A stretch of 64,000 bases of DNA from Psammoneis japonica (taxonomy: Eukaryota): assembly GCA_008632985.1 (NCBI GenBank), contig QPGO01000194.1, forward strand, positions 1 through 64,000, given 5' to 3'. The translations under genes were made by a program, and so were the position numbers. Under the pieces are notes generated by a model. That model was not told where the DNA came from and ran no database searches. It worked only from the letters and a program-made list of their open reading frames with translations. Numbering within the stretch: position 1 is the first letter of the stretch; each line of letters opens with the position of its first letter. Of the stretch, positions 1-57,653 are shown piece after piece.

Positions 1-1550
1 GTGGAAAGAGTTGTCCAGAGTTTGTTTGAATGCTCCATTCTGCATTGTGCGATCCATCGCGCAATGACAACTCCAACAGCTCGGCCACCCACATGAGATC
101 CCTGATTTGGCCTGTTGATGCATGTGTTCAGTGTTGATGGTTGATGTGTCCAATGACAGAGATGTGGTCCAGGAACTGCAAATGGATCATCAAGCAAGGG
201 ACAATCAGGTGTTTCTGTGGATTTGTAAAAATGAGTTGACATTGTGGAAGTCGTTGCGGAATCCACAACAAAGTGCAACATTTAGGAAACCTTTTCCTGG
301 AAGGAAGGGTTGAAATGTTTCGGACAATTGCACGACAACCCTTGCTGCTTGTGTGACTCAGATCTCCTGATGTTGCCACAACACACCATCAATTGCTGCA
401 AGGTTGTCACACAGACTTTCAACAATGACAATGGCCAAGAGTGGTGCCCAGCAACAGGCGGCTTTCAGAGCCCGCAAAATTGAGGAATTGGGGAAGGAAG
501 AATGGAACAGGTGTGATGCAGCGCGAAAGAGAAAGAGCATCAAGAGAAGGAACCGAGATGCTAAAGTGCTTGAGGAGAGAGTCAAGGCGACAGCCATGTT
601 GCCCCAGAGCAGGTTCCGTCTGACTCCGATCTGCACCCCTGCACCAGCAACATTTCAAAGCCCACAGCCAACAAGAACCACAGAAGAGGCAATGAGGACG
701 AGTCGGAGGATGGCAAAATTTGTGAGTGTGAGCCCTCAAGACTCCCCATCAAGGCAAACAACGGATGCGACTGTGATGATGAGTTGTCGGAGGCCAAGGT
801 TTGTGTTTGTGAGTCCTTGGGCAGAGAGGGACACACGGACAGTGAGGGTGCCAGTGTTGGAGAGCTTGGCAGTCGCAACCATGGCTGGAAAAGGGGCAGT
901 TCCATTCGTTTGCCATTGACAGAGGAATTCCAGATGATCCGTCTTGATTTCCATGATGAAGCTGAACTGTGTGCAGTTGGTGCGAAGATTGTCCAAGAGG
1001 CATTTGAAACCCAAGGCAGGCCTTGGCAATGTTCTTGGTCAAGTTGCTGGTGGCTTGACTGACAAAGTTCGCTGGGACCTCCAGTGCATCCTTGATGGTC
1101 ACAACAATTTTGTGCACAACAAGTGGGTGCACCGTTTGGACAACCCACGTGTGCACAAGGAGGTGTTGGATCGTGTCATCCCAAACTGGGAATTTCATGA
1201 CTGCAATTGCCGTTCACCGCCTGAAACAACTGCTTGATGAGAGTCACATGGAGAATGCAATTCTCAAGTGAAAGCTCAGTCTTTGCCAACTTGATGGCAA
1301 AAATGGCCAACCGGGAAAGCGCCGCCACTGGGGATCCCACTGAATTCTCCAGAAAACTCACAACTCGTAACCAAAATTGCACTGAATTTGCGGAATCCTC
1401 TTGCAATTAACAACGTGTGACCAACTTCTTTGTGACCATTTGTTCATTCCATTGAACTTCTCAATTGTGCTCTCTGCTCACTCCTTTTACGTCAAACTGT
1501 CACCAGTGCCTTGTTGCCCCCACCACAACCCACTTTGCTGCACTTTTGGA
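1..1550. repeat. Dispersed repeat family A, copy 1 (empty-site copy, truncated by window start), with decayed + strand ORF remnants
   Basis: Position 1 aligns to 10725. 1-603 matches 10725-11330 and ~607-1550 matches 18173-19146. Differences are dominated by TG/CA/CG swaps. Confidence 0.9.
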
Positions 1551-3697: not shown

Positions 3698-4674
3698 TGG
3701 GTTGGTTCTCATTTTCAAGGTGGAGCTGTGAAGATCCACTGTTGCACAGGCTCATTTCAAGTGCTTGTCCCATGCCTTCAGTTGCTCTAGAAGCCAGCCA
3801 CCAGCAGCGATGCTGTCATCCAAGATTTCTCCATGTCCAAGAGTGCAAAGGCATCCCAGTGAGAAAGATTCTTGCCCAATCACTTTAACAAGCATGTTGG
3901 CAGAACAGCCAAGACAGCAGACAAGTCTTTGTCATCTTTGCATTCAGCAAACGTCAACTGGGTGCAATCTTGCATGTTCTGTGGATGTGTTCTGAGCTCT
4001 CCTTGTTCTGCACAAAATGACACACCGCACCCATCTGACTGTCCAGAGCAGTGATCATTTGTTCGTTGGACCATTTGACAGGCTCAATGGCACTGTTCCA
4101 TCAGTGCTGTGGCAAGATGCACTGTGGTTGCAGCAAAATTGACAGCAGTGTGCCAGCACACAGCATGGTTTCTTTTTGGTGCATCTGGTTGGCTGCATCA
4201 TGAAGGTGCAACGTCATGCAGTTGTGTTGATCCAGTCCTTGGCTGACCACTCACTGTCAGAAGATTGAAAAACAAAGCTGAAAAAGAAATCAAAATGTGT
4301 TGATGGACAATGCCAGAGCCATCCGTCACCAGGGGTGACCCAGAGTTGGAGCTCTGGTCATGTGCGGAGAGCCACAAAGGGTGCAAGGCATGGGCTGTGA
4401 GCAAAAACTCTGTGAACTCATGAACACTGCAAAACAACATTGACAAAACAAAGGATCAAGCTTGCTGCAATGTGGCTTGTGTGGTGCTTGTTGTGGGCTT
4501 GTGCACAGCTTCTGCATTGGCCCTCTGATGCAAAAGCAGATTGCAGAAGACAGCCCCTGTTTGTGCATGGGCAGGCACAGACCACTGTCTCTCATTGGTT
4601 CCCAGTGTGTGCCAAACAATCAATGGGTTGATTGCTCATCTCTTTCTGGGCTCTTTGACTGGTTGGTTGTTCTG

Positions 4675-5451: not shown

Positions 5452-5960
5452 CACATGCTGCCACCCTGAAGTGAGACAAGAGACCACACAGCAAGGAAAA
5501 AGAGAGTGAGCGGAGCAAGAGGTGACGGAGGGCACAGGTGAAAATGAAACTCATGGGGAGCCATGCAGCAGGTCTCAGTGGCTGCAAGCAAGGCGCACAG
5601 AGGTGAAACTGGACCAAGGAGAGAACATCCATGATGTTCAGCCCTCCCCATTAAAATGTCTTTTAAACCCAGCCCCTGTTGTGGACCCTGAAACACCCAA
5701 AGTGTCATGGTCTGCAATGTTCTTGTGGATGTCCATGACATCCGTGACAGTGACTTTGGGAACTCCATGACATCTGTGACATCACAAACTCAGTGTCAAA
5801 TTAGCTGAGACACCTTTTTTGTTGTGGACTCAAGTTTTTGTGGATTCTGTGACATCCATGATGAAATGGAGTCAGCGACATTGACTGTGTTCAGCACAGC
5901 CCATTGAAATGTCTTGGAAACTCAGCAACTGTTGTGGACTTTGCAACACCCAAACTGTCA
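5452..5960. repeat. ~500-bp module duplicated at ~7897-8422; its first ~150 bp also occur at ~1553 and ~19780
   Basis: acatgctgccaccctgaagtgagacaagagaccacacagcaaggaaaaagagag is shared at 5452 and ~7900, with colinear downstream sequence. Confidence 0.85.
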
Positions 5961-6089
5961 TGGTGTGCCAATGTCCAGCACTCCCCATTAAAATGTCTTG
6001 GAAACCCAGCCACTTTGTGGACTTTGCATCACCCAAACTGTCAAGGCCTCCATGACATTGGTTGTGTCATGGACTCTGTGACATCCGCC

Positions 6090-9000
6090 AGCACTCCAAA
6101 ATGAAACAGCTGAGAAACCTTGCCCTTGTTCCAGACTCTGCAACATCCACAGTGTTGCGGACTCTGTGACATCTGCCCTCACTGCAAAATGAAACAGTTG
6201 AGAAACCTTGTCCTTGTTGCAGACTCTGCAACATCCACAGTGTCATGGAATCCATGACATCCGTGACATCTGGACTCTGCGACATCCGCCCGCAGTCCAA
6301 AATGAAACAGTTGAGAAACCCTGTCCTTGTTGCAGACTCTGCAACATCCACAGTGTCACGGATTCCATGACATCCGTGACGTCTGGACTCTGTGAGATCT
6401 GCCTGCAGTCCAAAATGAAACAGCTGAGAAACCTTGTTCTTGTTGCAGACTCTGCAATGCCCACAGTGTCATGGACTCCATGACATCCACAATGTCATGG
6501 CCTCCATGACATCCACCACACTCCAAAATGAAACAGTTGAGAAACCTTGTCCTTGATGCAGACTCACAGTGTCACAGACTCCATGGCATCTGCCACATCA
6601 TGGCCTCCTTGACATCCACCAAACTCCAAAATGAAACAGTTGAGAAACCTTGTCCTTGTTGCACACTCTGCAACATCCACAGTGAGGAAGACTCCATGAC
6701 ATCCGTGATGTCATGGACTCCACAACATCCACCCATGCTCCAAAATGAAACAGTTGAGAAATCTTGTCTTTGTTGCAGACTCTGCAACATCCACAGTGTC
6801 ACAGAATCTGTGGCATCCATGAGGACATGGACTCCGTGACATCCGCCCGCACTCCAAAATGAAACAGTTGAGAAACCTTTTCCTTGTTGCAGACTCTGTG
6901 ACACCCACAGTGCAATGGAATCCATGATGTCCGTGATGTCATGGACTCCATGACATCTGCCCACACTCCAAAATGAAACAGCTGAGAAACCTTGTCCTTG
7001 TTGCAGACTCTGCAACATCCACAGTGTGGCAGACTCTGTGACATCCGTGACATCATGGACTCTGTGACATCTGCCTGTTCTCCAAAATGAAACAGTTGAG
7101 AAACCTTGTCCTTGTTGCAGACTCTGCAACATCCACAGTGTCATGGAATCCATGACATCCGTGATGACATGGACTCCGTGACATCCGCCCTCACTCTAAA
7201 ATGAATCAGTTGAGAAACCTTGTCCTTGTTGCAGACTCTGCAACACCCACAGTGTCACAGAATCTATGACATCCATGATGTCATGGACTCTGTGACATCC
7301 ATGACTTCATGCACTCCACAACAAAAAAAGTGGAGTCCTTGTTGTGGACTGAGAAACCTTTTCCTTGTTGCAGACTCTGTGACATCCACAGTGCAATGGA
7401 ATCCATGACGTCTGTGATGTCACAGACTCCGTGACATCTGCCCACACTCCAAAATGAAACAGTTGAGAAACCTTGTCCTTGTTGCAGACTCTGCAACATC
7501 CACAGTGAGGTGGGCTCCATGACATCCATGACATCATGGACTCCGCAACATCCACCAATGCTCCAAAATGAAATGGTTGAGAAACCTTGTCCTTGTTGCA
7601 GACTCTGCAACATCCACAGTGCGGCAGACTCTGTGATTTCCGTGACATCATGGATTCTGTGACATCCGCCGGTTCTCCAAAGTGAAATGGCTGAGAAACC
7701 TTTTCCTTGTTGCAGACTCTGCAACATTCACAGTGTCACGGAATCCATGACATCCATGATGTCATGGACTCAATGACATCCACAATGTCATGCACTCCAC
7801 AACAAAACAGTGGAGCCCTTGTTGTGGACTCTGCAACACCAAAAGTGTTGTCTGTTCCATGACATCTGTGATGTCATGGACTCTGTGACATCTGTCCACA
7901 CATGCTGCCACCCTGAAGTGAGACAAGAGACCACACAGCAAGGAAAAAGAGAGAGAGCAGAGCAAGAAGCAACAGAGGGCACAGGTGAAGATGAAGCTCA
8001 CAAGGAGCCATGCAGCAGCTCAAGCAAGGCCCACAGAGGTGGAGCTGGACCAAGGAGAGAACATCCATGATGTTCAGCCCTCCCCATTAAAATGTCTTGG
8101 AAACCCAGCCCCTGTTGTGGACCTTGCAACACCCAAAGTGTCATGGTCTGCAATGTCATGGATTCTGTGAGATCAATGATTTCATGGACTCTGTGACATC
8201 CATGACAGTGACTTCAGGAACTCCATGACATCCGCGACATCACAAACTGAACATCAGATCAGCTGAGACACCTTTTTTGTTCTGGACTCAAGTTTTTGTG
8301 GATTCTGTGACATCCATGATGAAATGGAATCAGCAACATTGATGATGTTCAGCACGGCCCATTAAAATGTCTTGGAAACCCAGCCACTGTTGTGGACTTT
8401 GCAACACCCAAACTGTCTTGGTGCCCCCACTCCAAAATGAAGCAGCTCAGAAACCTTGCCTGTGTTCCAGACTCTGCAACATCCACAGTGTCACAGACTC
8501 TGTGACATCCATGACATCATGGACTCCATGACATCCGCCCTCATTCTCTATGATGAAACAGCTGAGAAACCTTGTCCTTGTTGCAGACTCTGCAACATCC
8601 AGAGTGTCACGGAATCCATGACATCCATGACATCTGGACTCCGTGACATCCGCCCGCAGTCCAAAATGAAACAGTTGAGAGACCTTGTCCTTGTTGCAGA
8701 CTCTGCAACACCCACAGTGTCACAGACTCAGTGACATCTGTGACATCATGGACTTTGTGACATTGGCCCTGGCTCTAAAACGAAACAGCTGAGAAACCTT
8801 GCAGACTCTGCAACATCCACAGTGTCACGGAATCCATGACATCTGTGATGTCTGGACTCTGTGACATCCGCCCACAGTCCAAAAAGAAACAGTTGAGAAA
8901 CCTTGTCCTTGTTGCAAACTCTGCAACACCCACAGTGTCACAGAATCCATGACATCCATGATGTCATGGACTCCGTGACATCCATGACTTCATGCACTCC

Positions 9001-10570
9001 ACAACAAAAAAGTGGAGTCCTTGTTGTGGACTCTGCAACACCCAAAGTGTTGTGGATTCCATGACATCCATGATTTTTTGGACTCTGCGACATCCACCTG
9101 CACTCCAAAATGAAACAGTTGAGAAACCATGTCCTTGTTGCAGACTCTGTAACATCCAAGTTGTTGTGGAGCCTGTGACATCCATGACATCATGGACTCC
9201 ATGACATCCATGATGTTCAGCGCTCCCCATTAAAATGTCTTTGAAACCCAGCCCCTGTTGTTGACTCTGCAACACCCAAACTGTCACAGACTCCATGACA
9301 TCCATGGCATCATGGACTCTGTGACATCCACCTGCACTCCAGAACAAAATGGCTGAGAAAGAACCTTGTCCAACTTTCTGAAACACCTTTTTTGTTGTGG
9401 ACTCAAGTTGTTGTGGATTCTGTGACATCCATGATGTCAATCCATGACACTCATGATGTTCAGCACTCCCCATTGAAATGTCTTGGAATCCCAGCCCCTG
9501 TTGTGGACTCTACAGTGCCCAAACTGTTGTGGACCCCATGACATCTGTGACATCATGGACTCCATGACATCCACCTGCACTCCAAAATAAAATGGCTGAG
9601 AAACCTTGTCCTTGTTGCAGACTCTGCAACATTTGCAGTGTTGCAGACTCTGTGACATCTGCCCTCACTCCAAAATGAAACATCCACAATGTCACGCACT
9701 CCACAACAAAACAGTGGAGCCCTTGTTGTGGACTCTGCAACACCAAAAGTGTTGTCTGTTCCATGACATCTGTGATGTCATGGACTCTGTGACATCCGTC
9801 TGCACTTCACAATGAAACATCTGAGAAACCTTGTCCTTTTTGCAGACTCTGCAACATCCACATTTTGTTCTGGAATCTGTGACATCCATGATGTCACGGA
9901 TCCTGTGACATCAGTGACACCATGGACTTGGTGACATTTGTGACATCACAAACTCCACAAAGAAACAGTTGAAGATTCCATGAAGCACAGTGTCGCGGAT
10001 TCCCTGACATCTGCAATGTCATGGACTCCATGACATCTGGGACATCACACACTCAACAACAAAACAGTTGAGAAACTTTGTTTTGTTGTGGACTCTGCAA
10101 CATCAAAATTTGTTGTGGATTCTGTGACATCCATGATGTGTCATGGTTTCCATGACATCCATGATGTTCAGCGCCCCCATTGAAATGTCTTGGAAACCCA
10201 GCCCCTGTTTTGGACTCTGCAGCCCCCAAAGTGTCATGGATTCCATGACACCCATGATTTCATGGACTCTGCAACATCTGTCCTTGCTTCACAATGAAGC
10301 AGTTGAGAAACCTTGTCCTTGTTGCAGAAAAGTTTGAGAAACCCAGCCCTTGTTGTGGGCTGCCCAACATCTGCAATGTCACAGATGCTGTGACATGATC
10401 TGCAATGTTGTGCAACAAAAGAGCTTGGAAACCTTTTCCTTGTTGCAGATTCTTCATCATCCACATTGTCACAGATTCCATGCCATCCATGATGTCATGG
10501 ACTCCATGACATCCATGACATCACACACTCCACAACCAAGCAGTTGAGAAACCTTGTCCTTGTTGCGGGC
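6090..10570. repeat. Degenerate tandem array, ~114-bp unit built from 9-bp subrepeats and GANTC-centred palindromes
   Basis: ctccaaaatg-type unit starts at 6738, 6852, 6966, 7080, 7194 (period 114). Recurrent tgttgcaga-c-tctgcaaca and tgtcatgga-N-tccatgaca. Confidence 0.92.
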
Positions 10571-10724
10571 TCTGCACTGTTTCTCAATCACACCAACACT
10601 GTGTTTCAATTGTCAGTCAATGTGGTGTTGGGAGACTCATGTGTGCAGCTGTTGGCAGTGTGGCAGAATGGACTCTCTGCTGGCGGCAGCCAGGAACAGA
10701 AAAGGTGCTCTCTGCTGCGGCAGA

Positions 10725-11330
10725 GCAGAAAGAGTTGTCCAGAGTTTGTTTGAATGCACCATTCTGCATCACGCGATCCATCGTGCAATGACAATTCCAA
10801 CAGCTTGGCTGCCCACATGAGATCCCTGATGTGGCCTGTTGATGCATGTGTTCAGTGTTGATGGTTGATGTCTCTAATGACAGAGATGCAGTCCAGGAAC
10901 TGCAAATGGATCATCAAGCAAGGGACAATCAGGTGTTTCTGTGGATTTGTAAAAATGGGCTTGTGTTGCGGAAGTCATTACGGAATCTGCAAAGAGGTGC
11001 AATGTTTGGGGAACCTTTTCCTCGAAGAAAGGGTTGAAATGTTTTGGATGCCCACATGACAACGCTTGCCACTTGTGTGACTCAGATCTCCTGACATTGC
11101 CACAACACACCATCAATTGCTGCAAGGTTTTCACACAGACTTTCAGCAATGACAATGGCCAAGAGCGGTGCCCAGCAACACAGGCAGATTTCAGAGCCCG
11201 CAAAATTGAGGAATTGGGGAAGGAAGAATGGAGCAGGCATGAAGCAGTGCAAAAGAGAGAGAGTGTCGAGAGAAGGAACAGAGATGCCAAGGCACTTGAG
11301 GAGAGAGTCAAGGTGATGGCTGCGTTGCTG
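10725..11330. repeat. Family A copy 2, left part (interrupted by the copia insertion)
   Basis: Aligns with 1-603 and stops at the LTR edge. Confidence 0.9.
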
Positions 11331-11512
11331 CAAACAAATCTCGATGCAACGAAAGAACAAGCACGATGCCTTAAGTCTAAATGGGAAGTGGCAACACTGT
11401 CAATGCAAACCTAAACCTGATTAGATTGTGAGCGTGTCACTGCAGCACCACTCGATCCACACATCTTAACCAACCACCAATTGTGACATGGCCCTCCATC
11501 CAGATTTACTTG
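11331..11512 (-). repeat. 3' LTR (182 bp)
   Basis: Ungapped match to 17987-18168 with 15 differences by hand alignment, all transitions. Confidence 0.92.
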
Positions 11513-11676
11513 GTCCCCGTGAAACGGCAATGACAATGCCGATTCGTCTGAACATGTAACATCCTCTCACAGAGAGGCAAACCACAAGAACCCAAATTAA
11601 ACCACCAGACATGCTGGCTTGGGAGGCCACGATACGTGGACGCGAGCCACAGGTGCCTGGCCTTGGTGTCGGGACA

Positions 11677-14600
11677 TCACCAAAAAATGCGCGAGCAAAG
11701 CTTCCATCGCCGCTCTCCTGCAACCACCTTCGCAAGTAGATCGGCCAAGTTTGTTTCCGTGTCCTCCTTGCCAACACGAATAATTCCCGCTGCGACCGCT
11801 TCTCGTGCAACATGGTAGTTGATGGCATCATGCTTCTTGTGCAAAACCGACTCGGGTGCACTTACATTCTTTGCAACACCGCGATTGTCACAAAAGACAC
11901 TTGCCGGTCCTTCAAGGGGAACCCCAAACATACGAAGCTTGTAACGCAAAGCAACAACCAATTCTTTACAAATCCGCATCGCAACCAATTCACTCCCGAA
12001 CGTTGCCGATTCCACCGTGTTCTGCCGCTTGCTGAACCATGCCACTGGCGCGTCATTGACGAATGTCAGAATCCCGCTGTGCAACCTGCGAGTGACAACA
12101 TTCCCTGCATGGTCAGCATCAACAAATGCACAGATGTTTGCCGGATCACCACGAGGCTTCGGTGCCCGTGGCGGCAGTTCCTCCTCGACGTCCCCATAAA
12201 ACTCGGTCCAGTCTGCGTTCGAATTGAAAATAGATTCATCAATCACCGGTTCCTTTGGATCAAATCCGATGCATCCGACGTTCTGGTGTTTCTTCATGTG
12301 CGCAAATGCATGGTGCAATGCCTCAAGATGTCCTTTCCTTGGATTAGCTTGACATTGAGATAGGATTGAAACCTCATGCAAGATGTCGACACGACCCAAC
12401 TCGATCGCATGACGACAAATCCCTGTCAGCTGTAAACACCTGTCCACCAAGTCGGGGCCCAACTCGTCCGTCATGTCCAGTTCCGGTTTGCACTTTGGGG
12501 GCAGTGGATCCTTTGCACTGTTCTTCAGAACCTCTCCATTGCCGTCTTCATCCAATGGGCCTTCCACAGTCTTAATCGCCGATTCAACATATGACCTCGG
12601 GGAACTCGCCCAGATTGTGCGCCCATCCTGAGTCTGAACCTTCTCAACGTTAGCTCCAAGACAAACTTCTGGTTCTCCTTCGCTGCCGGGCTTCACGGCA
12701 CAGTGTTCACCCATTGCAGTGACAACAGACTTCCCTTGATGGGAAATGATTGGCATGTCATCGACATGAACCAAAAGCATTTCATGATGCTCATGCCCAT
12801 CCTCACGAGTCGCCGCACGCAAGCAGACATCTGGGTCCACTCTCGTCGATTCGAAGCCTGAGTCATGTAAGACCGATGACAGTGCAGACCTCCAAGAGTG
12901 TCCCGAGCTCTTTAAGCCACATGACACCCGAGTGACAACAAGTGCCTTTCCTTCGTACTCGCCGCATTCCTTTCCACCTTCAAACCACATCTTTTCTGCG
13001 CACGGTGCATTGAGACAAGCATTCTCCAGATCAATCGTCGCAATGTTGATGCCATTCAAGGCTGCTGACAAGAATCCAAGTCGCACACTGTCTCTGGAAA
13101 CCACGCCAGAGCAAGTGATCGATGCCAGGGCCTCTGTCATGTGTCCGCCAGCTGCAAACCTTGCCTTTCTGGTGAAATCCATTTCAATGTCGAATGCCAT
13201 GTGGCACCTGATCTCCTGATGACCACGCAAAGTTGTGCTCTTGCCTTCCTGGACGACTTGAGGGGTTTCAGCTTCGTGCTCGCGCTATGCCACCTTTGCC
13301 TTTGCCATCTCCTTGTTGATTGCACGAGCCCAACAATCTGTCCCTGTTTCCTGATCAATCCGCAAAGCGTCCTCCGTGGACTTGGGCAATCGGGTCCCAA
13401 ACTTGTGAGTCGTGCGCCAGCACTTCTTCTTGACCTTGGACACAATGCGGTTCCGTTTGTGCAGGACATGTGTGACCCACCAAGCAAAAGCAGGTTCTTC
13501 CGTCAACCTGTTCGCAACAGCATGCTCAGCAACTTCAATGGGGTTAGAGTCCTTTGGATCTTTGAGTTTGACCCAAGATGAGCTGCCATCCTTCCATCCA
13601 ACCAGTGGCTTCCATCCTTTTGTTGTGATCTTCTTCTTCTCCTTCCCGTCAGCAGTTCGTACGGTGCCATCAGCAATCGACACCGCATCGTCACTCCTCT
13701 CGTGGTCCTGCATCTCGTGCAAGATAGAACACTGGTTGCCCTCACTGTCAACCTGAGCAAACATGTTCTCGGCAATCACATTGGCTGCGTGCTTGTCTGT
13801 GGTTCTGTCGGTGTGTTCCACTTCGCACTCGCGAGTGTCAAACAATGGGTTTTGATGCCGAGTCCCAATTGGACGCCCATCCTGTCCTCTTGCACGTTTC
13901 GTCACAACACCACGTCGCTCGCCGTCGGTTCCGATGTCAAACACAAGTTCCATTCCCAGGTGTTGATCGATTGCCTGCTCGTTGTCGTCGTCTGGTCACT
14001 CGTCGGGCAATGGCATGTTGCCACATTCCTCGTCCTCTGGCGTGATGCCGCCCTCATGTTCCACACCGAGGTTGCCGTCAATTGCAAGATCGTCCAACAC
14101 ATTGACAAAGTCAGTGTCGTCCAATCGCTTCTCCAGCTGCTCATTAAAGTTGTCGACCTTGACGCGAATGTCCGGTTGTGCCACATCAGCCTGTGTCACA
14201 TGCTCGACCGATGTTTTGGAGACAATCTTCCCATTTTCCGCAATGATCCAACAGCACACATCCGAGCCAACTTTGTGTGAGACACCAAGCCACCGTCCAA
14301 GCCTTCGAGGATCGTCAGTTGCACTCGGCTTGTTGGGCCTGTCCCACCACCATGCCATGTCGTAGAAACCAAAATCTAAATGCTCGCCTGTCTCTGGTGT
14401 CTGCCCAGTGACCTCTTCATGTCCAGTCCTCTCATCCCTGCCTCTTGCCATGCGCGACACTAATTCCGACTCGCAAACAAGACCAAAATCCCACAATCGC
14501 TTTGGCACCTTCTTCTTCGTCATCCGCAGCCGCCAACGTTTGGCTAAGAAACCAATTTCGCGCTCCGCTGCCTGGTTCTGGTTCTTCCGACCCTGCTCTG

Positions 14601-15981
14601 ATGTTCTTAATTGTGTTCTCACACGTCGTGCGTGTCTCACAAATTTGGTGCTCCTTCCTGTGAACTCTCCTGCCCCGTCCGACATAAGATGTTCTGGTGC
14701 ACCCACGTCGTCTGTGAATTCAACAAGAGACAAACCTGCCTCCGACCTGGTGGTCATCGGCACAACCTTCACGAATTTGCCCTGAGTGCAAACATTGGCA
14801 CACGTGTTGCCGAGCAAAGACTTCACCTTGGATGTCAAAGTGTCCACAAACCATGTTCCTTTCAGACGCTTCCGATGCAAGTCAAGATGATCCACCCTCA
14901 CTCTTCGTGACATCGGCTGGGTCGCCGTTCGCACACCGCGCTGAGTTGTTACATTGAGAGCATCTTTTGCCGTTTCTAAACCGACACTCCATTTTCGGGC
15001 CAGCTCTTCAGCGTCAACCTTCGAGTGCCGATCCTTGCTGTGTAAATCTTTGACTGCCCTCTGCCTCTTGTCCACATCGTTGTGACATGTGCAAGCCATG
15101 TTCACTGAGCTGACAAGCCTGTCGCAAAACGATTGAAGTTGATGGATGGGAGACACAGACGATGGTTGCATTTCGACCTCGCCCCAGCATGCTGCTTGGG
15201 ACTTTGCCTTCTCGCTCCTTAATTCCAAGACCTGTTCTTGTCGCATGCCAGAGGTTGATGATCGAATGGCACGCATCTCCGCCTGCTCTCTAGTGCGCTC
15301 TGGCAAGCCCATGTCTGTCTGTGCTGGATCCCATGCATCACCTGTCAACAGCACAACCGGTGAGTTCTGTACTTCCCAATCCGTCGGAACACGAGACTTG
15401 AAAGACACAATTGTCCCCGTGGTGTTGAAAGGGATGAAAGCTTCGTCAGCTTCAATGCCAAATCCGTTTCGGGTGTCGCAAGGGTTGTCGTGTGCGGGTG
15501 TGTTGCACGCACGGAGTTGGTTGGGATTCAAAAGTGAGTGTTCCATGTCAGTCCCAAACCAGAGCATTTGATCACCAACCAGCAAACACTCACGAGTCGT
15601 TTCCGGATCTGTCCATGCGGTGCAACAACGTGCCACAGGAATCTGTTTGATCGGCTCATGAGAGTCCAGAAATGGATGCACCTTGCACACTTCATTTGTC
15701 ATCTCCATGAGCTTCCAGTTTGCCCCAGCGCAACAAGTGTCCGCATGAGCATCACATTCATTTCGAGCGACAAACCCAGGTGTCGTCAAATTTGTCATCT
15801 GTGCAGAACTCGTCGATCGGATCACACGTTTTGATGTCACGGCAATGTGCCTCTTTGTCGCCTTTCCTTTGAAACGAGACATTGGGTGGGGTTTGGTCAA
15901 CAGCAAGAAGAGCAACACAAGCAAAAACGACAAGTGCACCAAATGCGCCAACACTCCAGCAGCTGTTGCCACCCCAAGGAG
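11677..15981 (-). pseudogene. pol: pol (protease, integrase, chromodomain-like segment, reverse transcriptase, RNase H) with two in-frame stops
   Basis: PR CDAHADTCCAG; IN FVDT...MSDGAGE...AAEREIG; RT RKARFAAGGH, CGLKSSG, LVHVDD; RNase H FVDADHAG, ESATFGSE, FCDN, NLADLLAK. ORFs 13996-15972, 13285-13953 and 11677-13230 share one frame, with stops at 13996-13998 (TGA) and 13285-13287 (TAG). Confidence 0.93.
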
Positions 15982-17526
15982 TCAGGTGGAACCATTGCAG
16001 GCTCCCCGACCGAAGGCACGTCCATTGCATCCACCGCGATCCCGGTCAGCGCCGCAACCACGCCCGCTGCTCCTTTGCTCCTGATCCTGTTGTTGGGTTT
16101 GGCCTTGGCCATCTTGATGGACTTGGGCTTCAGCTGCATGCCCACCGCCCCCATCGCGTCCTTGTCGACCTGCGGGAGACCCACAGCCACCACCGCGTCC
16201 ATGACCCATTCGTTCGCGAGCTTGGAACACGCAGCTCATGCCCCCATCACACTGTAACTTTTCCCATTCTTGAGCGCTAAAGCTCCTTGTAGGGTCGGAT
16301 GCATCGACTCCATTGATCATCGTAGTGTGGTCGCCACCTCTGCCTTGACAGCCGCCACCACATCCGTGTCCACCCCCACGTCCAAATCTTCCTCCGCGAC
16401 CGCGACCTCGACAAAAACCGCGGCCACCGCCGCCACCACGGCTCATTTCAGAAATCTTGCGCTTTGAGCAACGCCGGGCTTCCAACTGAGTGCCTGCATG
16501 CAAACGAGAGACTTCGGATGAGAAATGAGCACATGCCCCCGCGAAGTCACGAGGGTGCTGACTGCCAATGACAGCCGTTGCTGCAATGAGACGAGTGTCA
16601 TCCGTTCGGATCCCTTTTAGAAGAATGTCAACTTTCTGTCGTTCAGATTTGCGGTCGTCCGGTGATTTGTTCAAAGCAGCGAAAGCACTGGCGAGTTTCT
16701 CATTGAACTTTTCAAACGGGAGCGATCCTTCCTTTTCACAAAACAAGGTTTCAACAGTTGCCACAGCCAGATGGATGCACTTGCTCAACTCGCCCTGTCC
16801 ATTGCAATGGTCAACCCATGCTTTGAATGCTCCACGTCCGTCTTCTGTTGCGCCAAACGGTTCGATCCATGCCCATCCTGCCGTGTCGACCAAGTGTTCC
16901 TTCAACATGCGGCAAACGCTGTGGTTGTCCTCGTCACATGCGGCGCCATTCAATGGCATCTGGCACATGCGCTGTTGTTGAGCATCCGTGAATGCAGCCG
17001 GAGCTGGCATTGTCCTTATGACATGGCAAAGGGGTTCTTTCAACACGCCAAATTTCTGTGCCAAGAGATTCAGGAAAGCATCTTCGCACACATCGAAGTC
17101 ATCGGGCTTGAACTTTACGAGACCGCTTGCCGACGCGTCTGAATCCATGCGCTCCTTTTCGATGCACCTGCCATTCCGGGCTGCAGCCACAGCTGCCACA
17201 TTAAAGTCTGCCGCAACCAATGGCTGATTCCGTTTGAGCAAATCCTGGCACCACCATGCCAGCGCCTGCAAGTTCTTGATCTGAGTGGTCCCAAGAGTCA
17301 CACGTCCGTCGGCCACCGTGCAACGAGACGCCCTCTGCACCATGTCTTCCACATCGTGATCACTCTCCATCACTGCGATGCTTTCCAAAGTCGTGAACCC
17401 TTCATAGAAGACCAACCTCGCCCTTGCGTTCTGGTCAGCAACACCACAAACTTGCAAAACTGCGTCAACGTCAGCTGCCGCGGCTGACGCTGCAAGTGCT
17501 GCTGCTGGTGCTGCCGCTGCTGCCAT
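15982..17526 (-). pseudogene. gag: gag-like ORF with RGG-rich C-terminal region
   Basis: Long ORF between the 5' LTR and pol, in frame with pol. Contains EDGRGAFKAW...GQGE and KVDILLKGI segments and a GRGRGGRFGRGG tract. Confidence 0.8.
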
Positions 17527-17970
17527 CCTGTGATAGAGAAAGGGCACAAAGGTCCCGCACCGGGAACATGTGGCTGTCAGTCTGCATGGTCATGATGACT
17601 GCACTTTCTCTGTGTTGTGACAACGGGTTCACACAGCCACCCGACGTCAGGGTGATCAGTCCTGTGTCGTTCATGTCAACCGACATTGTTGAGCACACGC
17701 TCGGGCACATTGCCCAATGCCGCAGTCCCTTCACACCCGTCACACATGTGAGGATAGTGACTGTCTTTGCGAGCATCACCATTGCAAGCTGTTTTTGTGG
17801 ATGTTGTGACAAGTGACATGAGACACATCATCGTGCGCATCAATCCGAATTCTGATGCATCGCGCACAGCTCAGCACCGTTTCTACAGCTGCACGTTCCA
17901 TGCAAACAACACAACAAACAATCGTCCATGACGAATTGCACTCGAAACCATTTCGCTCTGTCTTTTTCGT

Positions 17971-17983
17971 CTTGGCTCTGATG
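17971..17983 (-). other. Putative primer-binding site (initiator tRNA-Met-like)
   Basis: Minus strand reads catcagagccaag 3 nt inside the 5' LTR, resembling the copia tRNA-iMet PBS (TGG)TATCAGAGCC with TA->CA. The TGG is absent. Confidence 0.5.
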
Positions 17984-17986
17984 GAG

Positions 17987-18168
17987 CGAATAAATCTCGA
18001 TGCAACGAAAGAACAAGCACGACACCTTGGGTCTAAATGGGAAGCAGCAACACTGTCAATGCGAACCTAAACCTGATTAGATTGTGAGCGTGTCGCTGCA
18101 GCACCACTCGATCCACATGTCTCAACCAATCACCAATTGTGACATGGCCCTCCATCCAGATTTACTCG
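17987..18168 (-). repeat. 5' LTR (182 bp) with 10-bp terminal inverted repeat
   Basis: Top-strand ends cgaataaatc ... gatttactcg (9/10 inverted match). Confidence 0.92.
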
Positions 18169-18172
18169 GCTG

Positions 18173-19146
18173 GAGCAGGTTCCGTTCGATTCCGATCCGC
18201 ACCCCTGCACCAGCAACATTTCAAAGCCCACAGCCAACAAGAACCACAGAAGAGGCAATGAGGACGAGTTGGAGGATGGCAAAATTTGCAAGTGTGAGCC
18301 CTCAAGACTCACCGCCAAGGTGAACAACGGATGAGACTATGATGGCAAGTTGTCAGAGGCCAAGGTTTGTGTTTGTGAGTCATTGGATGGAAAGGGATGC
18401 ATGGATGGTGAGGATGCGGTGTTGAAGAGCTTGGCAGTTGCAACCATGGCTGGAAATGGGGCAACTCCATTCGTTTGCCATTGACAGAGGAATTCCGGAT
18501 GATCCGTCTTGATTTCCATGATGAAGCTGAGCTGTGTGCAGTTGGTGCAAAGATTGCCCAAGAGGCATTTGAAACCCACCTGCCAAATTTAAAACTGGAG
18601 GCAGGCCTTGGCAATGTTTTGGTCAAGTTGCTGGTGGCTTGACTGACAAAGTTCGCTGGGACTGTCAGCACATCCTTGACGGTTGCAACAATTTTGTGCA
18701 CAACAAGTGGATGCACGGTTTGGACAACCTGTGTGAGTGCAAGGAGGTGTTGGATCAGGTCATTCACGAACTGTGCCAAAGTGAGAATTTTGTGACTGCA
18801 ATCGCGGCGTTCACCACCTGAAACAACTGCTTGATGAGAGTTGCATGGAGAATGCGATGCTCAAGCAAAAGCTCAGCCGTTGCCAACTTGATGGCAAAAA
18901 CAGCCGACCGGGAAAGCGCGCCACAGAAGATCCCATTGAATTCTCTAGAAGACTCGTGGCTCGTAACCAAATTGCGTTGCCTTTGCAGAATCCTCTTGCA
19001 ATTAACAAATGTGACCAACTTCTTTGTGACCATTGGTTCATTCCATTGAACTTCTCAATTGTGCTCTCTGCTCACTCCTTTTAGGTCAAACTGTTGCCAG
19101 TGCCTTGTTGCCCCCACTGCAACCCACTTTGCCGCACTTCTTGGAA
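18173..19146. repeat. Family A copy 2, right part
   Basis: Resumes alignment with ~607-1550 right after the LTR (gagcaggttccgt). Confidence 0.9.
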
Positions 19147-19800
19147 TGAACGGTGCCTTTGGTGGCGCCTCTTTGCCATTTTCTGCGCATCACTGCTCCT
19201 GATGTCACCAAAAATCTAACATCCAACCACATGTTGTTGTGGCACTTTGAAACTTTCAACAATGGCATCTTGATCTCTCCGACCTTTGGTTTGTCTGTTT
19301 TTACCAGAGAGAAAAAGACATGCGTCTCATGAGAATGTGGCAAACACCAGGCTGCATGTGCAATGGAGTGATGCAGACGATCAAACAACTTTTGATCTGG
19401 AAGCAGGAACAGCAACTTGTGAAAAGGAGGCTCCCAAGCAAGTGCACGTGCTGATGCAGGCATCATTGTCCCACTGCAAGATGCAATTCCAAGGTCACGG
19501 CAAGCATGCAAAATCTAAAGCCAATTCCACCTCATGCACTGTGCACAAGTCATGCAAAAACAACTTCATCATCTCGGAGACCTGTTTGTCCTGCTCTCAT
19601 GACTCTTGTTTTCTCATCCAAACACGTTGTTCTCCAGATTGGTTGGAAATTGACAAACTTTTGGGTGACAATTGGAAACCAAGCAAAACAACACTCATGC
19701 ATTCAAAAGTCACTTTCCAGTGGGTAGAGCCAAAGAGCTGACCAATGCCAGGCAACCCACAGCTGGAGCTCCAGCCAGAATGCTGCCACCCCAAAGGGAG

Positions 19801-22267
19801 CCAAGAGACCACACAGCAAGGAAAAAGAGAGAGAGTGGAGCAAGAGGTGACAGAGGGCACAGGTGAAGATCAAGCTGATGGGGAGCCATGCAGCGGCTCT
19901 CAGTGGCTGCAAGCAAGGCCCACAGAGGTGGAGCTGGACCAAGGAGAGAAGATGGACCCAGTCTGGAAGGGCTCTTTGACAGGTTGAGAGTTCCAAGAGA
20001 CAGCCCTGCATGTCAGGCAACAAGCTCCATCAAACAATGGAGCTGCAAATGTCAAATGAAAAGAGATCCAAACAGCGGACTGGCCTGCAAGAAAGTCATG
20101 GAGACAGAACTTGACTGTGTCAGATTTCCAATGCAGGTGGTGTGTGTTGCATCCTCAATGAGCACTCCTGCTTTCAAAAGCTCTGCCATGGCTGTCACTC
20201 TGTTTGAGTGCAGCATCAGACATTTGATGTGCCGCTGCAAGTGGCGGCAAAGGTCAGGGTGCACTGCTTCACACAGGTGTCTTGGGGAACTTGACAACAT
20301 GCTTGCTCCAGAGGCCCCAACAAACAAGCCAGGGGATGTTGCTCCTTCCTGAGGAGATGCTCCTAGATGCCAGATGCAATGCATGACTGTTTGGGTGGCC
20401 TGCAGAGGGCACAAGAAACTAGCTTGTTGGCAGCACCAGCAGCAGATCACCAAGCTTTGCTGCAGGGTTCCTTGCAGGGGCGCTGCACTGGCAACAGCAC
20501 AACACAAGTTGACCAAGCACATGGTGCTGGGACAGACTGTGAATGGCAAATGGAAAAGCACCTTTAGATGGCAGCCTGAGCAGATCTCCATCCAAGATCT
20601 GCCTCTTTCAGCTCTTTTTTGCCAGCACTCATGTCATCACAGTTGTCAGCACAACTCCGCTTGGCCTTTTCATCCTGTGTCTTTGGTTTTGTGTTCACTG
20701 TGTCACTTTTTTGCATTGCCTGGATGTAGTTTGCAAAATGAAAAAGCAGAAGACCGTGAGCATGTGCTTTGTGCATGGTTGTGTTGGCACTGGCTCATGC
20801 ACACAGACTGATCTCAAAATTGCAGTCTTTTGCATTGCTCTGAAGTGAGCATGATGGCAGCAACCCTCCTTTGCACTCACCTCTGTCATCTGAAGTTGTC
20901 ACAGTTGTTGTGTCACAAATGCAGCAAATTTGTTTTTCAGCAGAAAATCACAAGCCATTTTGGCCAAATTTGAACACAAAAAGTGGCAGCCAGCCACCCT
21001 TAAAAGGAGCTTTCTGAGCTTTTAAAAAACCTCAATTTGCCTCAATGATGCCACAAAGTCACCACTTGTGTTAACAAATGAATCTGACAAACCAAGTTGT
21101 TCACTTTCCTTGTTCAATTCTGCCTTCTTTTGTTTCAAGGTTCTGCTGTTTTGTGAGTCATGACCGTCTCCCTCCAGAAAGCTTTGCATTTGAGCACAAC
21201 TTCATCTTGAAACTGGGGTGCCACCACAGGCCAGTCCTGTCTGGCCTTTGTGCAGGACCTTTAAAACCACTTGTGCAAAGCACAACAAAAATTGCACACC
21301 ATGATGAGCACTGCCACCAATGCATTGTCTTGCAGCACTGCACCCATTGCAATGCTGACTGCCAAACTGCACCAACATGCTCTTGACACCTCCAAGCATG
21401 TGGCGAACTTTTCATTTTGTTCAAAGATGAGTGCATCTTTGAGTGTGCTGACACAGTTAAATGGCAGCACTCACAGAACATTTCTGGCAACTGCACCAAA
21501 GTGGACAGCTTGACCCAAGAGAGACAAACCGTGCTTCTTGATCCCAAAAAGACTGCCCATCAACTGTGCACTCTTGGCTGCAATGCCAACCAGCACAATG
21601 GTTTGCTGCTTGCACAGCATTTTGCACTTGTGCATGAATTTGGTCAGTCATGTTGATCTGCCAAAATGATGTCTCACTCAATTGCAGCTTTCAATCCACT
21701 TTTAAATGCTGCACAATGAGCCTCATTGTTGCAATGAGCACCTTGGCTTGAATTTGTCCTTGCACAACTCAGGCCATTGTGAGTTTGTTTTTTGCATTGC
21801 CTGCCTCTTGGAACAAGCATGTGAGCCCTTGGTGGCTAGGCAAATGCTTGTTCAATGGTTTTGGCACTCCACTTCTCTTGTCCAATTTTTTCATGTGGAA
21901 GCTCCTTGTCACCTTCAGGAATTGTGTGCCTCCCCTTCTTCAATGGAAGCTAAAAGACTTCTGAACAGCATTGTTTTTCAGCTCATCCTTCAATGCAGAA
22001 CAGACTGTTTGCACCCAGCATTTTTGCCACAGCTCTTGGGCTCAAAGTTGTCAAAATGAACAGCCAAATGAGAGAACATTTTTAAAACCAACCAACATCC
22101 ATGCCATGGTCATCTTTGGCAAGTTTTTGCATGGGTGAGGGCACTCTGTTGTTGTTCTTTGTGCACTTTGATGGTGCTGTTCTGACATCATTCAGGATGG
22201 GGAAGAGCAAGCTTGGGACCACTTGCACCATCAACTGCTCTCCATTTTTACCAGTTTTGTCACACCT
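19801..22267. repeat. Dispersed repeat family B, copy 2
   Basis: Colinear with 1550-3697. Confidence 0.85.
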
Positions 22268-22949
22268 GCATGTCTGCACCCACATTTGACAGCAGCACTT
22301 TGGGTTGCTCAAAAATGGAGGAGCAGCAAGTTGAGAACAACCCCTGCAAGCAAGCAGTCAAGAGGTGACAGCACCCCCAAACCTTTGTCATTCTTTGCCT
22401 TGTGTGGGTTGGACAACCCAACAATCAGACAGAGGAGAGAGAGAAAAAGAAGAGGGCAAGCACCTTCTCCAATTTCTCATGCAGGCTGTCATCACTGCTG
22501 CATCCTCTCACAGTTGTCCTTTTGCACCTTGCAAAACTGCAGAAGACCAGCAGTCCAGGGCAGAAGAGGAGCAGCAGCAGCAGTGGCAGCAGTTTGGACT
22601 CAATGTGCCCTCAAAGCGAGGCTGAAGTCAATGCTGACAGACATTGGAGACAGGGGGTGCACTCCCTTGTGTCAGACAGACTGGGGTGGACAGCATGGAG
22701 AGATCAGATGATCTCTCTTTTGCTCACTTTCTTTCTCATCTGGCACAAGATTGTCATCTGTCCCAGACATCCATCAGATTGTCCTGATGCCAGCAGTCCG
22801 TGAGGTCATGAGCAGCAGTGTTGTCTTCCTCAACACAACTGTGCCACAATGTTGTTGTGTGATTTGGCAATGTTTCTCTGTTGAAGTCATCATCTTTGCC
22901 ACAGTCATTTTTTTCTTTCTTGGTTTGTGATCACCACGACCACCGCAGA

Positions 22950-57591: not shown

Positions 57592-57653
57592 TCTCAGTAC
57601 GTGAGATTTCGTGTATGGGGACATCCCGAATAAATTTAGCATGGCTAAAACCT

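Follow-up and report, generated by a model that had tools for sequence, protein, structure and literature searches.

A once-intact copia retrotransposon in the window (the whole 64-kb stretch of DNA analysed here) has probably been hypermutated in place and at the DNA level by conversion of TpA to CpA or TpG, which is the best explanation of the data. An earlier note on this DNA had read such changes codon by codon in the gag-pol frame (Tyr to His or Cys, and Ile, Leu and Val replaced by comparable single steps). That observation was confirmed, and its interpretation as inactivation by missense change is supported.

The element and its reading frame

The element occupies positions 11329-18169 on the minus strand and can be assigned by its sequence to the Ty1/copia LTR retrotransposons, as an RVT_2 reverse transcriptase, an integrase upstream of it and flanking LTRs are all present. 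Its parts are:

17985-18169, minus strand: 5′ LTR, direct repeat of 11329-11513
15985-17589, minus strand: gag-like ORF, 535 aa, C-terminus Gly/Arg-rich
15982-15984, minus strand: in-frame TGA between gag and pol, context cTGAc
13999-15981, minus strand: protease-integrase part of Pol, 661 aa, aligning colinearly with Pol relatives of 1404 aa
13996-13998, minus strand: in-frame TGA, context gTGAc
13288-13995, minus strand: linker between integrase and reverse transcriptase, 236 aa, containing GWKPLV, LKDPKDS and KFGTRLP
13285-13287, minus strand: in-frame TAG
11680-13284, minus strand: reverse transcriptase-RNase H, 535 aa
11677-11679, minus strand: terminal stop, TGA
11329-11513, minus strand: 3′ LTR, terminus ...TGCA at the host junction

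Gag-pol forms a single frame (17589..11677, minus strand) of 1971 codons with three internal stops and the terminal one, i.e. four stops as compared with 35-87 in the other five frames. The 5.9-kb frame described earlier was therefore borne out, although the end coordinate then given, 17547, lies slightly inside the open frame, the true limit of which is 17589. Amino acids 556-1970 align in one HSP with the intact 1404-aa Pol protein P0122 (61% identity), which means that the frame contains no frameshift, as had been claimed. Colinear alignment to the 1404-aa Pol proteins also gives the Ty1/copia order of protease, integrase, reverse transcriptase and RNase H in one polyprotein; a Pfam search of the mutated Pol sequence named no integrase or protease domain, and 5314 library proteins match the protease-integrase ORF at E ≤ 1e-3. 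The reverse transcriptase is recognised as RVT_2 (PF07727; E 2.4e-8, score 34.3 bits, cutoff 31.6), and the reverse transcriptase-RNase H part has 1341 homologues (best identity 66%), nearly all of which carry PF07727. For the gag-like ORF the Pfam search returned no significant family.

The two LTRs are identical at 167 of 181 positions, and the 14 differences of the BLAST block consist entirely of transitions. Just upstream of the 3′ LTR lies a purine run (ACGGGGA, minus strand), and the 5′ LTR is followed by a ATCAGAGC-like stretch, which may resemble a tRNA-Met primer site. The host junction was set by comparison with an empty-site paralogue (see below), and at the junctions so fixed no clean 5-bp target-site duplication was recognised. 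Searches of the 64-kb window with blastn and tblastn found no other copy of the element.

The earlier argument that TA>CA or TA>TG cannot make a stop from a sense codon is sound, and the stops at 13996-13998 and 13285-13287 fit C>T or G>A. The former, where Arg is the residue most often seen in relatives (19 of those aligned), would fit CGA>TGA, i.e. a CpG>TpG change. The latter is a G>A change found in this copy alone: all aligned contigs of other copies read CCA on the plus strand (TGG, Trp), and the relatives have Trp (63), Phe (40) or Tyr (15). As for the TGA between gag and pol, it may be either a CGA>TGA change or a native stop, since according to a passage in Maumus (2009) one stop between gag and pol is frequent in diatom copia elements. 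Other copies end in TAA (plus strand TTA, here TCA, at 11678), a comparison by which the terminal TGA reads as a TA>TG step within the stop codon.

Direction and context of the changes in Pol

The 48-nt catalytic string quoted earlier, GHEHHEMLLVHVDDMP, corresponds to minus-strand positions 12798..12751. Its motif HVDDMP (12751..12768, minus strand; codons CAT..ATG CCA) stands where the relatives have YVDDIL, with Tyr in 151, Ile in 113 and Leu in 150 of 157 sequences. Likewise, NACL is found where the majority of relatives have Tyr (143/151), SCGLK where they have Leu and Tyr (151/153 and 152/153), and KARFAAGG where they have Val (132/139). The less certain cases GWKPLV (Pro CCA, relatives Leu in 57/95), LKDPKDS (Pro CCA, Leu in 61/100) and DSGF (Ser TCA, Leu in 65/154) fit a TA>CA step as proposed, whereas KFGTRLP does not, its Thr codon ACC against Ile in 72/110 relatives indicating T>C in a TpC.

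Since conserved Tyr codons must be TAY, His or Cys at such columns polarises the change as TA-ancestral, independently of CpG, as the earlier note had maintained. The 23 conserved Tyr columns now hold 10 Cys, 7 His, 5 Tyr and 1 Val, so that 17 have become CAY or TGY, and the Tyr content is 0.4% in the element versus 3.9% in relatives. Compared with P0122, the nearest intact relative, replacements are strongly directional (forward/reverse: Y>H 11/0 and Y>C 16/0, together 27 to 0; L>P 5/1; L>S 5/1; I>T 8/1), whereas control pairs run about equally in both directions (I>V 16/14, K>E 4/3, M>V 2/2). The relatives do not share the altered motifs: 80 homologues average 0.6 Tyr>His/Cys replacements, against 13/17 here. 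Tyr has likewise given way to His or Cys in the short relatives L046 and L050, which come from unrelated metagenomes, and in the database proteins P0020 and P0236.

The element differs at 76 of the 516 Pol columns conserved in relatives: 11 of 124 in the protease-integrase part (5 being TpA steps), 10 of 93 in the linker (6 TpA steps) and 55 of 299 in reverse transcriptase-RNase H (29 TpA steps). Gag was excluded, the depth of aligned relatives there being 3-9 with no conserved columns. With ancestral codons inferred from relatives at most 66% identical, rather than from intact copies of the same family, and with the ancestral third base A of Val, Leu and Ile taken from the element's own present codon, the differences comprise 21 TA>CA, 19 TA>TG, 2 other A:T>G:C, 8 CpG decay steps, no other G:C>A:T, 10 transversions and 16 multi-step changes. 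The last two classes (26 of 76) are ordinary divergence, and the relatives' consensus is therefore not the ancestor. That 40 of the 42 inferred A:T>G:C changes fall at TpA is far from an even spread over contexts (binomial P=6e-28 against a null share of 0.178, the TpA share of nonsynonymous A>G/T>C opportunities in the coding DNA of 12 intact relatives).

TpA depletion across the window

In the element TpA is at 0.14-0.15 of expectation (61 observed, 384 expected), below all 80 related metagenome loci (range 0.25-0.98), whereas CpG is nearly intact (395 observed, 462 expected; 0.86). CpG decay and TpA loss are thus separable in rate. The phenomenon is domain-wide and not confined to the element, which lies within the following larger structures:

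1-28200, no strand assigned: TpA- and CpG-depleted repeat domain enclosing the element, edge at about 28.15-28.25 kb
10728-11313, no strand assigned: left portion of host repeat R, which the element interrupts, 88% identical to 4-587
18173-22268, no strand assigned: right part of host repeat R, 86-94% identical to 607-3699
61450-64000, no strand assigned: second depleted domain, continuing to the window end

An uninterrupted paralogue of R at 4-3699 represents the empty site. Taken as a whole, the depleted domain has TpA at 0.05 and CpG at 0.1-0.2 of expectation. In 2-kb windows of the first domain outside the element, observed/expected ratios are 0.01-0.09 for TpA, 0.03-0.34 for CpG and 1.7-2.0 for CA/TG; from about 61.5 kb onwards TpA is at 0.04-0.14 and CpG at 0.00-0.18, and CpA/TpG stands at 1.5-2.0 wherever TpA is depleted. 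Between the two domains lies a gene island with normal TpA (0.43-0.70). Viewed at 250-bp resolution, the domain boundaries near 28.2 and 61.45 kb are sharp, and the last gene ORF before the second domain ends at 61203. A Pfam search of nine ORFs from the flanking repeats gave nothing above threshold. In the satellite monomers, columns with CA/TG polymorphic pairs are mixed, some having a minority CG and others TA.

Survival of TpA depends on its flanks: TTAA is untouched (41 in the depleted domains, 58 in the gene island), whereas RTAY is almost extinct (ATAT, GTAT, ATAC and GTAC together 6 versus 403; odds ratio for retention 47, P=1e-26). Seven of the 31 TpA steps in the reverse transcriptase ORF occurred in TAA/TTA-type contexts, so that no simple one-strand trinucleotide rule fits. 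One-strand models based on the 3′ or the -2 neighbour of the edited A fitted the survivor counts equally, by symmetry, and each conflicts with some of the polarised Tyr changes, such as tTAC>tTGC or tTAT>tCAT. Ratios of xCAy to xTGy products gave no clear asymmetry.

The TA, CA and TG states of the LTR pair (TA/TA 4, TA/CA 2, TA/TG 1, CA/TG 3) include three CA/TG doublets, which means that conversion was independent in each LTR and took place after their separation. A two-copy model puts conversion at about 80% of susceptible TpA sites, and only 2-3 LTR differences in about 181 nt (about 1%) are neither TpA nor CpG. Alignment of the R paralogues over 3643 nt shows 42 CA/TG doublets; in such doublets alone a TA and a CG ancestor are indistinguishable. 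The stretch was found in one public sequencing run only (one sample, one study; 0.42 of sampled words), no RNA run being listed as containing it. In that one run 461 of 2476 aligned contigs are at least 99% alike to it, an agreement that may reflect the assembly's own data. Across the aligned contigs 692 of 766 variable places are transitions, and the 40 best-supported places at which this copy departs from the others, a small and biased part of the 766, include 13 of CpG decay here versus 3 of clear TpA change plus 3 doublets.

Mechanism and relation to known systems

We propose that a formerly intact Ty1/copia retrotransposon landed in a repeat that had already decayed, and that hypermutation then struck the inserted DNA in place and on both strands, making A:T to G:C transitions at TpA only. 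The target would be a whole repeat or heterochromatin-like domain, with the activity halting no more than a few hundred bases from neighbouring genes, eliminating at least about three quarters of the TpA sites in the element and proceeding some ten times faster than CpG decay of that domain. As no stops can arise from it, the frame would remain open even as the TA-containing codons for Tyr, Ile, Leu and Val are rewritten, and inactivation would have come by missense saturation, which extends to the catalytic motif, and by one or two nonsense changes of the ordinary kind. The agent could be a targeted DNA adenine deaminase, its product inosine being read as G, whose activity would be set by the bases flanking TpA (RTAY preferred, YTAR poor, TTAA refractory).

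Instead of the adenine, the thymine of TpA might be the modified base, e.g. as 5-hydroxymethyluracil made by a TET/JBP-type enzyme, which would then mispair with G or be misrepaired. Hydroxymethyluracil in dinoflagellate DNA reportedly favours TpA and TpC. TpA being palindromic, T>C on either strand would yield CpA and TpG equally, as seen (21 versus 19), and the flank dependence is duplex-symmetric, against a one-strand trinucleotide rule; on the other hand, the sequence reads the same for an A-initiated and a T-initiated change, and the authors of a preprint on Bigelowiella natans favour, in its main text and from homology only, an ADAT2-like adenine deaminase (Mettrop et al., bioRxiv 10.64898/2026.01.13.699255). 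We regard thymine modification as unlikely.

It is very improbable that the copy arrived already mutated, through editing of its RNA or cDNA before integration by ADAR/ADAT-like or APOBEC-like enzymes, even though the element is a retroelement, the other family copies differ mostly by transitions, and ADAR-type enzymes favour a 5′ U according to the same preprint's text. Had the genomic RNA been edited, the sense strand should show A>G alone, whereas T>C (21) equals A>G (19) on it; moreover, the LTRs were converted independently, the surrounding satellite and repeat R are even more depleted (TpA 0.05), and depletion follows the domain edges rather than those of the element. Strand symmetry and the same depletion in satellite and repeat R argue for action on DNA. 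That systematic errors of base calling or assembly, in DNA that is modified or repetitive, made TA read as CA or TG can be considered extremely improbable: the depleted regions are repeats, the weakest places of assemblies, and a single public run holds the stretch, but the run contigs agree with it as described, the changes are codon-coherent within a 5.9-kb frame devoid of indels, the LTRs differ from each other, TTAA is spared, and the same Tyr loss occurs in the four relatives named above. Finally, a copia lineage with different functional motifs, or low TpA from codon usage, has practically negligible probability; only the open frame speaks for it, whereas at most sites the element's residue is present in 0-1 of 80 homologues, substitution relative to the closest intact relative is strongly asymmetric, three stops interrupt the frame, and the reverse transcriptase is barely recognised by Pfam.

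The system that in-place TpA hypermutation most resembles is that of B. natans, where, according to the preprint's main text, integrated viral DNA undergoes TpA-restricted hypermutation, 230 of 231 de novo mutations in two viral regions of mutation-accumulation lines were A>G or T>C and all at TpA, the directly measured mutation rate was elevated about 1000-fold in some lines, and TpA-depleted CDS are enriched in reverse-transcriptase and DDE Pfam domains (bioRxiv 10.64898/2026.01.13.699255). As in that account, A:T>G:C transitions here are essentially restricted to TpA (40/42), both products occur (19 TA>TG and 21 TA>CA on the sense strand), the footprint is low TpA with high CpA+TpG, and, within the 64-kb window, particular foreign or silenced regions are affected while the rest is normal. 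The host here is not obviously B. natans: it has long intron-free ORFs, its nearest protein clusters are, weakly, diatom/oomycete, and a host protein of 1013 aa has 61% identity to its best relative. The target is a full-length LTR retrotransposon together with satellite and dispersed repeats instead of viral inserts, and depletion is near saturation (0.05-0.14, versus 0.45 reported for the B. natans NCLDV insert). TpA loss coincides here with CpG loss and depends on flanks, whereas the preprint's main text does not contain 'CpG', mentions DNA methylation in general terms only and is silent on flanking or trinucleotide context, which its supplementary tables may contain (bioRxiv 10.64898/2026.01.13.699255).

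Other systems share individual features. One transition class in a dinucleotide context, spread across repeated or foreign DNA and inactivating transposons without indels, recalls fungal RIP, a genome defence with its own dinucleotide footprint, which changes C:G to T:A mostly at CpA and thereby creates TpA and stop codons. The present changes are the opposite: TpA is destroyed (0.05-0.14), CpA/TpG is made (1.5-2.0), no stops can arise, and Pol has no G:C>A:T beyond CpG decay. Decay of 5-methylcytosine at CpG in methylated transposons likewise leaves CpA/TpG in excess and has affected this same domain too (8 Pol steps), but Tyr>His/Cys and TpA loss are beyond its reach. Animal ADAR/APOBEC hyperediting, which acts on RNA or single-stranded cDNA and is strand-asymmetric, resembles the present case in its deaminase-type clustered transitions crippling retroelements; here, however, the changes are strand-symmetric, postdate LTR separation and reach non-retroelement DNA in the flanks. 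A full-text literature search, with most subscription journals outside its scope, found no TpA-specific hypermutation beyond the B. natans preprint, and a term search of the available text of two diatom papers (PMC4504042, PMC2806351) returned nothing on it.

So far a single preprint, posted in 2026, has described TpA-only hypermutation, in one chlorarachniophyte and chiefly for integrated DNA of giant viruses and virophages. New here are a complete LTR retrotransposon polarised codon by codon, a host that appears to be a different algal lineage from B. natans, and changes that are domain-wide, strand-symmetric, later than LTR separation, near-saturating and separable from CpG decay. The flank rule (TTAA spared, RTAY erased) offers a concrete handle by which the responsible enzyme might be sought and tested. 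Annotation of such domains calls for caution, as TAA and TAG vanish, spurious long ORFs arise in all frames, and profile searches scarcely detect the wrecked domains. The chances appear evenly balanced that these findings represent a RIP-like TpA to CpA/TpG defence acting over silenced domains in a second, distant lineage (stramenopile/diatom-like, besides the rhizarian B. natans), with a flank code that is symmetric in the duplex (RTAY most favoured, YTAR poorly, TTAA exempt), a rate about ten-fold above 5-methylcytosine decay and missense-only inactivation of an LTR element. If this is true, TpA-editing defence would be old or recurrent within the SAR eukaryotes.

Frame, stops and insertion site of the copia element

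The minus-strand Ty1/copia LTR retrotransposon at 11329-18169 encodes gag-pol in a single continuous frame running from 17589 to 11677 (1971 codons). This frame holds 4 stops, against 35-87 stops in each of the five other frames of the element DNA. Its landmarks are the following:

11329-11513 and 17985-18169, LTRs, 167/181 identical
15982-15984, minus strand, internal stop TGA at the gag/pol boundary
13996-13998, minus strand, internal stop TGA
13285-13287, minus strand, internal stop TAG
11677-11679, minus strand, terminal stop TGA

The final ORF encodes a copia-type reverse transcriptase (RT) with a marginal Pfam match (RVT_2, E 2.4e-8, 34.3 bits for a cutoff of 31.6) and 1341 relatives by sequence search, the closest at 66% identity. 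Pfam returned no family for the integrase-region ORF, which has 5314 relatives by sequence search, or for the linker ORF. An intact 1404-aa Pol protein (P0122) aligns with residues 556-1970 in one colinear segment at 61% identity; therefore, Pol contains no frameshift and keeps the copia domain order. The element splits a dispersed host repeat (repeat R) into 10728-11313 and 18173-22268, and an uncut paralogue at 4-3699 represents the empty site. No clean target duplication was recognised at the junctions, and no primer-binding site within the element.

An earlier note, made from the sequence alone, had proposed that gag-pol was altered throughout by TA to CA or TG changes, and that these cannot turn a sense codon into a stop. 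The latter point was confirmed, since C is absent from stop codons and A>G after T yields only TGA from TAA. At the TAG (13285-13287), relatives have Trp (63), Phe (40) or Tyr (15) and all contigs of other copies read TGG, so that the stop is a G>A change private to the window copy. At the TGA of 13996-13998, Arg is the commonest residue in relatives, which is consistent with CGA>TGA. The TGA between gag and pol may be a mutation or a native stop; Maumus 2009 describes diatom copia elements as often having one stop at this point. The terminal TGA is TAA in other copies and is therefore a TpA step within the stop codon. As a by-product, TAA (15) and TAG (7) have become scarce in 11677-17589 next to TGA (124), which is why long spurious ORFs occur in the other frames. 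Long open frames of this sort on either strand, in the element (such as 13582-14280, plus strand, 232 aa) as well as in its flanking repeats, are not evidence of genes.

Substitution bias at TpA in Pol

The RT codons quoted in support of the proposal were found at 12798-12751, reading as claimed. Set against the majority residues of as many as 157 aligned relatives, the element has HVDDMP for YVDDIL (Y 151/157, I 113/157, L 150/157), NACL for NAYL (Y 143/151), SCGLK for LYGLK (L 151/153, Y 152/153) and KARFAAGG for KARFVAGG (V 132/139), the altered codons being CAT, ATG, CCA, TGT, TCA, TGT and GCA. Likewise, GWKPLV, LKDPKDS and DSGF fit a TA step, with CCA, CCA and TCA where Leu is the commonest residue in relatives. 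One further case, KFGTRLP, has to be dropped: its Thr codon is ACC, so that an Ile>Thr change there would fall in TpC.

The substitutions were tabulated by projecting 298 relatives (314 proteins less 16 unrelated host-gene relatives) onto the element, and a column counted as conserved if it held 30 or more sequences of which 70% or more agreed. The 516 conserved Pol columns showed 76 differences, made up of 21 single TA>CA steps, 19 TA>TG, 8 CpG>TpG/CpA, 2 other A:T>G:C, 0 other G:C>A:T, 10 transversions and 16 multi-step changes; in gag, there were no usable conserved columns among the aligned relatives. That is, 40 of the 42 A:T>G:C changes lie in TpA, against a null of 17.8% (the share of possible nonsynonymous A>G or T>C changes that fall in TpA, taken from coding sequences in 12 intact relatives; binomial P=6e-28). 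Every Tyr codon includes TA; of the 23 columns with conserved Tyr, 10 are Cys in the element, 7 are His, 1 is Val and 5 are still Tyr, against a mean of 0.6 Tyr>His/Cys at such columns in a control of 80 homologues; the Tyr content of Pol is 0.4%, that of relatives 3.9%. Seven signature substitutions account for 40% (25/62) of the element's differences and 4.9% of those of the homologues (n=80). Relative to P0122, the TpA exchanges are strongly directional (forward/reverse: Y>H 11/0, Y>C 16/0, L>P 5/1, L>S 5/1, I>T 8/1), whereas pairs not involving TpA show no such asymmetry (I>V 16/14, K>E 4/3, M>V 2/2). At the DNA level, 61 TpA were observed for 384 expected and 395 CpG for 462, and the TpA observed/expected (o/e) ratio of 0.14-0.15 is below that of all 80 related metagenome loci (0.25-0.98). 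Checks against the relatives and the substitution table revealed neither relatives sharing the altered motifs nor substitutions spread evenly over contexts. The original observation is real, and its interpretation essentially correct.

Other copies, strand and timing

Further family copies came from a single public sequencing run (one sample, one study), of which 2476 contigs matched the element (461 of them 99% alike or more, 672 at 95-99%, 817 at 90-95% and 526 below 90%). Transitions make up 692 of the 766 variable places. Among the best 40 of these 766, 13 rows have CA/TG in the window copy and CG in others, 4 show the reverse (CG in the window copy, CA/TG in others), 3 have CA/TG for TA in others, 2 keep TA for CA in others, and the remainder are 3 CA/TG doublets (6 rows), 3 transversions and 9 other transitions. 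The 13 rows indicate that CpG decay is active in the window copy too, and TpA dominance is not evident from these 40 places alone.

Of 81 sequences examined, which comprised 80 loci and the window, 68 showed no Tyr>His/Cys conversion. It was seen in the related protein P0020, where 16 of 19 conserved Tyr are now His/Cys; with 0.3% each, P0236 and P0020 rank lowest in Tyr content among 261 relatives of 250 aa or longer (median 3.7%). Two short metagenome contigs, L046 (spanning 1-1126) and L050 (1-1344), have His/Cys at 4/4 and 3/4 conserved Tyr, with TpA o/e of 0.30 and 0.25, respectively; they are 91% alike, and each is ~71% alike to the element. These relatives from other sources, P0165 included, thus share the footprint of the element, with TpA at 0.25-0.30, His/Cys at conserved Tyr positions and a Tyr content of 0.3-1.0%. 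At ~71% DNA identity, they belong to a copia family other than that of the element.

The sense-strand products are near equal (21 TA>CA and 19 TA>TG), which is not expected from editing of genomic RNA. Timing can be read from the LTRs, as the two copies are identical at integration. All 14 differences in their aligned block are transitions, and the paired dinucleotide states are TA/TA 4, TA/CA 2, TA/TG 1, CA/TG 3, CG/CG 5, CG/CA 3 and CG/TG 1. A CA/TG doublet means that a single ancestral palindromic dinucleotide changed separately in each LTR, and since CpG was largely kept, the doublets are best read as TpA-derived. Under a two-copy model, ~80% of susceptible TpA would have been converted after the LTRs parted, matching the 74% loss of conserved Tyr. 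Outside TpA and CpG, the LTRs differ at only 2-3 positions in ~181 nt. The element thus probably arrived intact and acquired its mutations after insertion, in place.

Depleted domains, flank dependence and known systems

The surroundings of the element point the same way and are more depleted still. In 2-kb windows over 1-10 kb and 20-28 kb, o/e is 0.01-0.09 for TpA, 0.03-0.34 for CpG and 1.7-2.0 for CA/TG, and the 18-20 kb window, which includes the right LTR, has TpA 0.11 and CpG 0.38. Across the gene island (28.2-61.4 kb), TpA rises to 0.43-0.70 and CpG to ~1, and depletion starts again at ~61.45 kb. Scanning at 250-bp intervals places the domain boundaries at 28.15-28.25 kb and 61.4-61.5 kb, a few hundred bases at most from the first and last gene ORFs. 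The element is thus a younger insertion within an older domain; because it has lost most TpA while keeping most CpG, the TpA process would run ~10x faster than the accompanying CpG decay, as estimated from -ln(0.25) vs -ln(0.86). The copies of repeat R, which are 86-94% alike and whose ORFs match no Pfam family, show 42 CA/TG doublets in 3643 aligned nt, with 42 CpG-type, 13 TpA-type, 68 other transition and 57 transversion differences.

A satellite array at 5452-10576 (~114-bp units, with 228-bp and longer periods, 72-88% alike) is nearly devoid of TpA (o/e 0.01-0.06), and its monomers have several CA/TG polymorphic column pairs, some with a CG and some with a TA minority. The gene island contains two glutathione S-transferase-like ORFs (GST_N_2 and GST_C_2; 52813-53769, minus strand, and 60223-61203, plus strand) 6.5 kb apart, with a PH-START-EDR2_C protein between them (54550-57591). 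The only gap in the window, an N run at 57654-57711, is flanked by an exact 249-bp duplication (57367-57615 and 57712-57960), which lies in or beside the 3′ end of this 1013-aa START/EDR2 gene and probably arose in assembly or scaffolding.

Relative retention of TpA by tetranucleotide, as TA/(TA+CA+TG+CG) in the depleted domains relative to the gene island
TTAA: 0.99
CTAA: 0.46
TTAG: 0.28
CTAG: 0.16
TTAC: 0.15
GTAA: 0.13
GTAC, ATAC, CTAC, TTAT: 0.03 each
ATAT: 0.01
GTAT: 0

Survival of TpA in the depleted domains is not random: TTAA alone is undepleted (41 copies in 1-28200 and 61450-64000, 58 in the island), YTAR sites survive in part, and RTAY is almost extinct, its four words numbering 6 in the depleted domains vs 403 in the island (TTAA vs RTAY odds ratio 47, P=1e-26). 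An additive model with two half-sites fits the retention values; being symmetric, it does not discriminate between an effect of the 3′ neighbour and one of the -2 neighbour of the edited position. A strict 3′-neighbour rule and a strict -2-neighbour rule are each contradicted by polarised Tyr events.

The closest known case is in Bigelowiella natans. According to a 2026 preprint, two integrated viral regions mutate at ~1000x the rate of the remaining genome in mutation-accumulation lines, though in some lines only; 230 of 231 mutations are A>G or T>C, all 230 at TpA. Reverse-transcriptase and DDE domains are over-represented among its TpA-depleted CDS, and an ADAT2-like DNA adenine deaminase is proposed by the authors; in the main text, 'flanking' and 'trinucleotide' do not occur and 'motif' is used solely for TpA itself and protein motifs. 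The window shares the signature and its regional confinement, but differs in how close to saturation it is, in the CpG loss found in the same place, in being polarised at codon level within a complete LTR retrotransposon and in its flank rule; its host, too, seems distinct, being gene-dense with long intron-free ORFs and having nearest protein clusters that point, weakly, to diatoms and then oomycetes. Compared with fungal RIP, the process is a mirror image, and it behaves otherwise than ADAR/APOBEC editing of retroviral intermediates. We consider DNA-level, domain-targeted TpA>CpA/TpG hypermutation in place, of the B. natans kind, to be the best explanation and a probable one by a good margin; chemically, it may proceed by deamination of adenine or by modification of thymine. 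A full-text literature search covering a minority of subscription journals yielded no further account of TpA-specific hypermutation. This kind of process has been described very recently and is already known from B. natans; the interest of the present case lies in what is likely a second host lineage, in the clean polarisation and in the flank rule.
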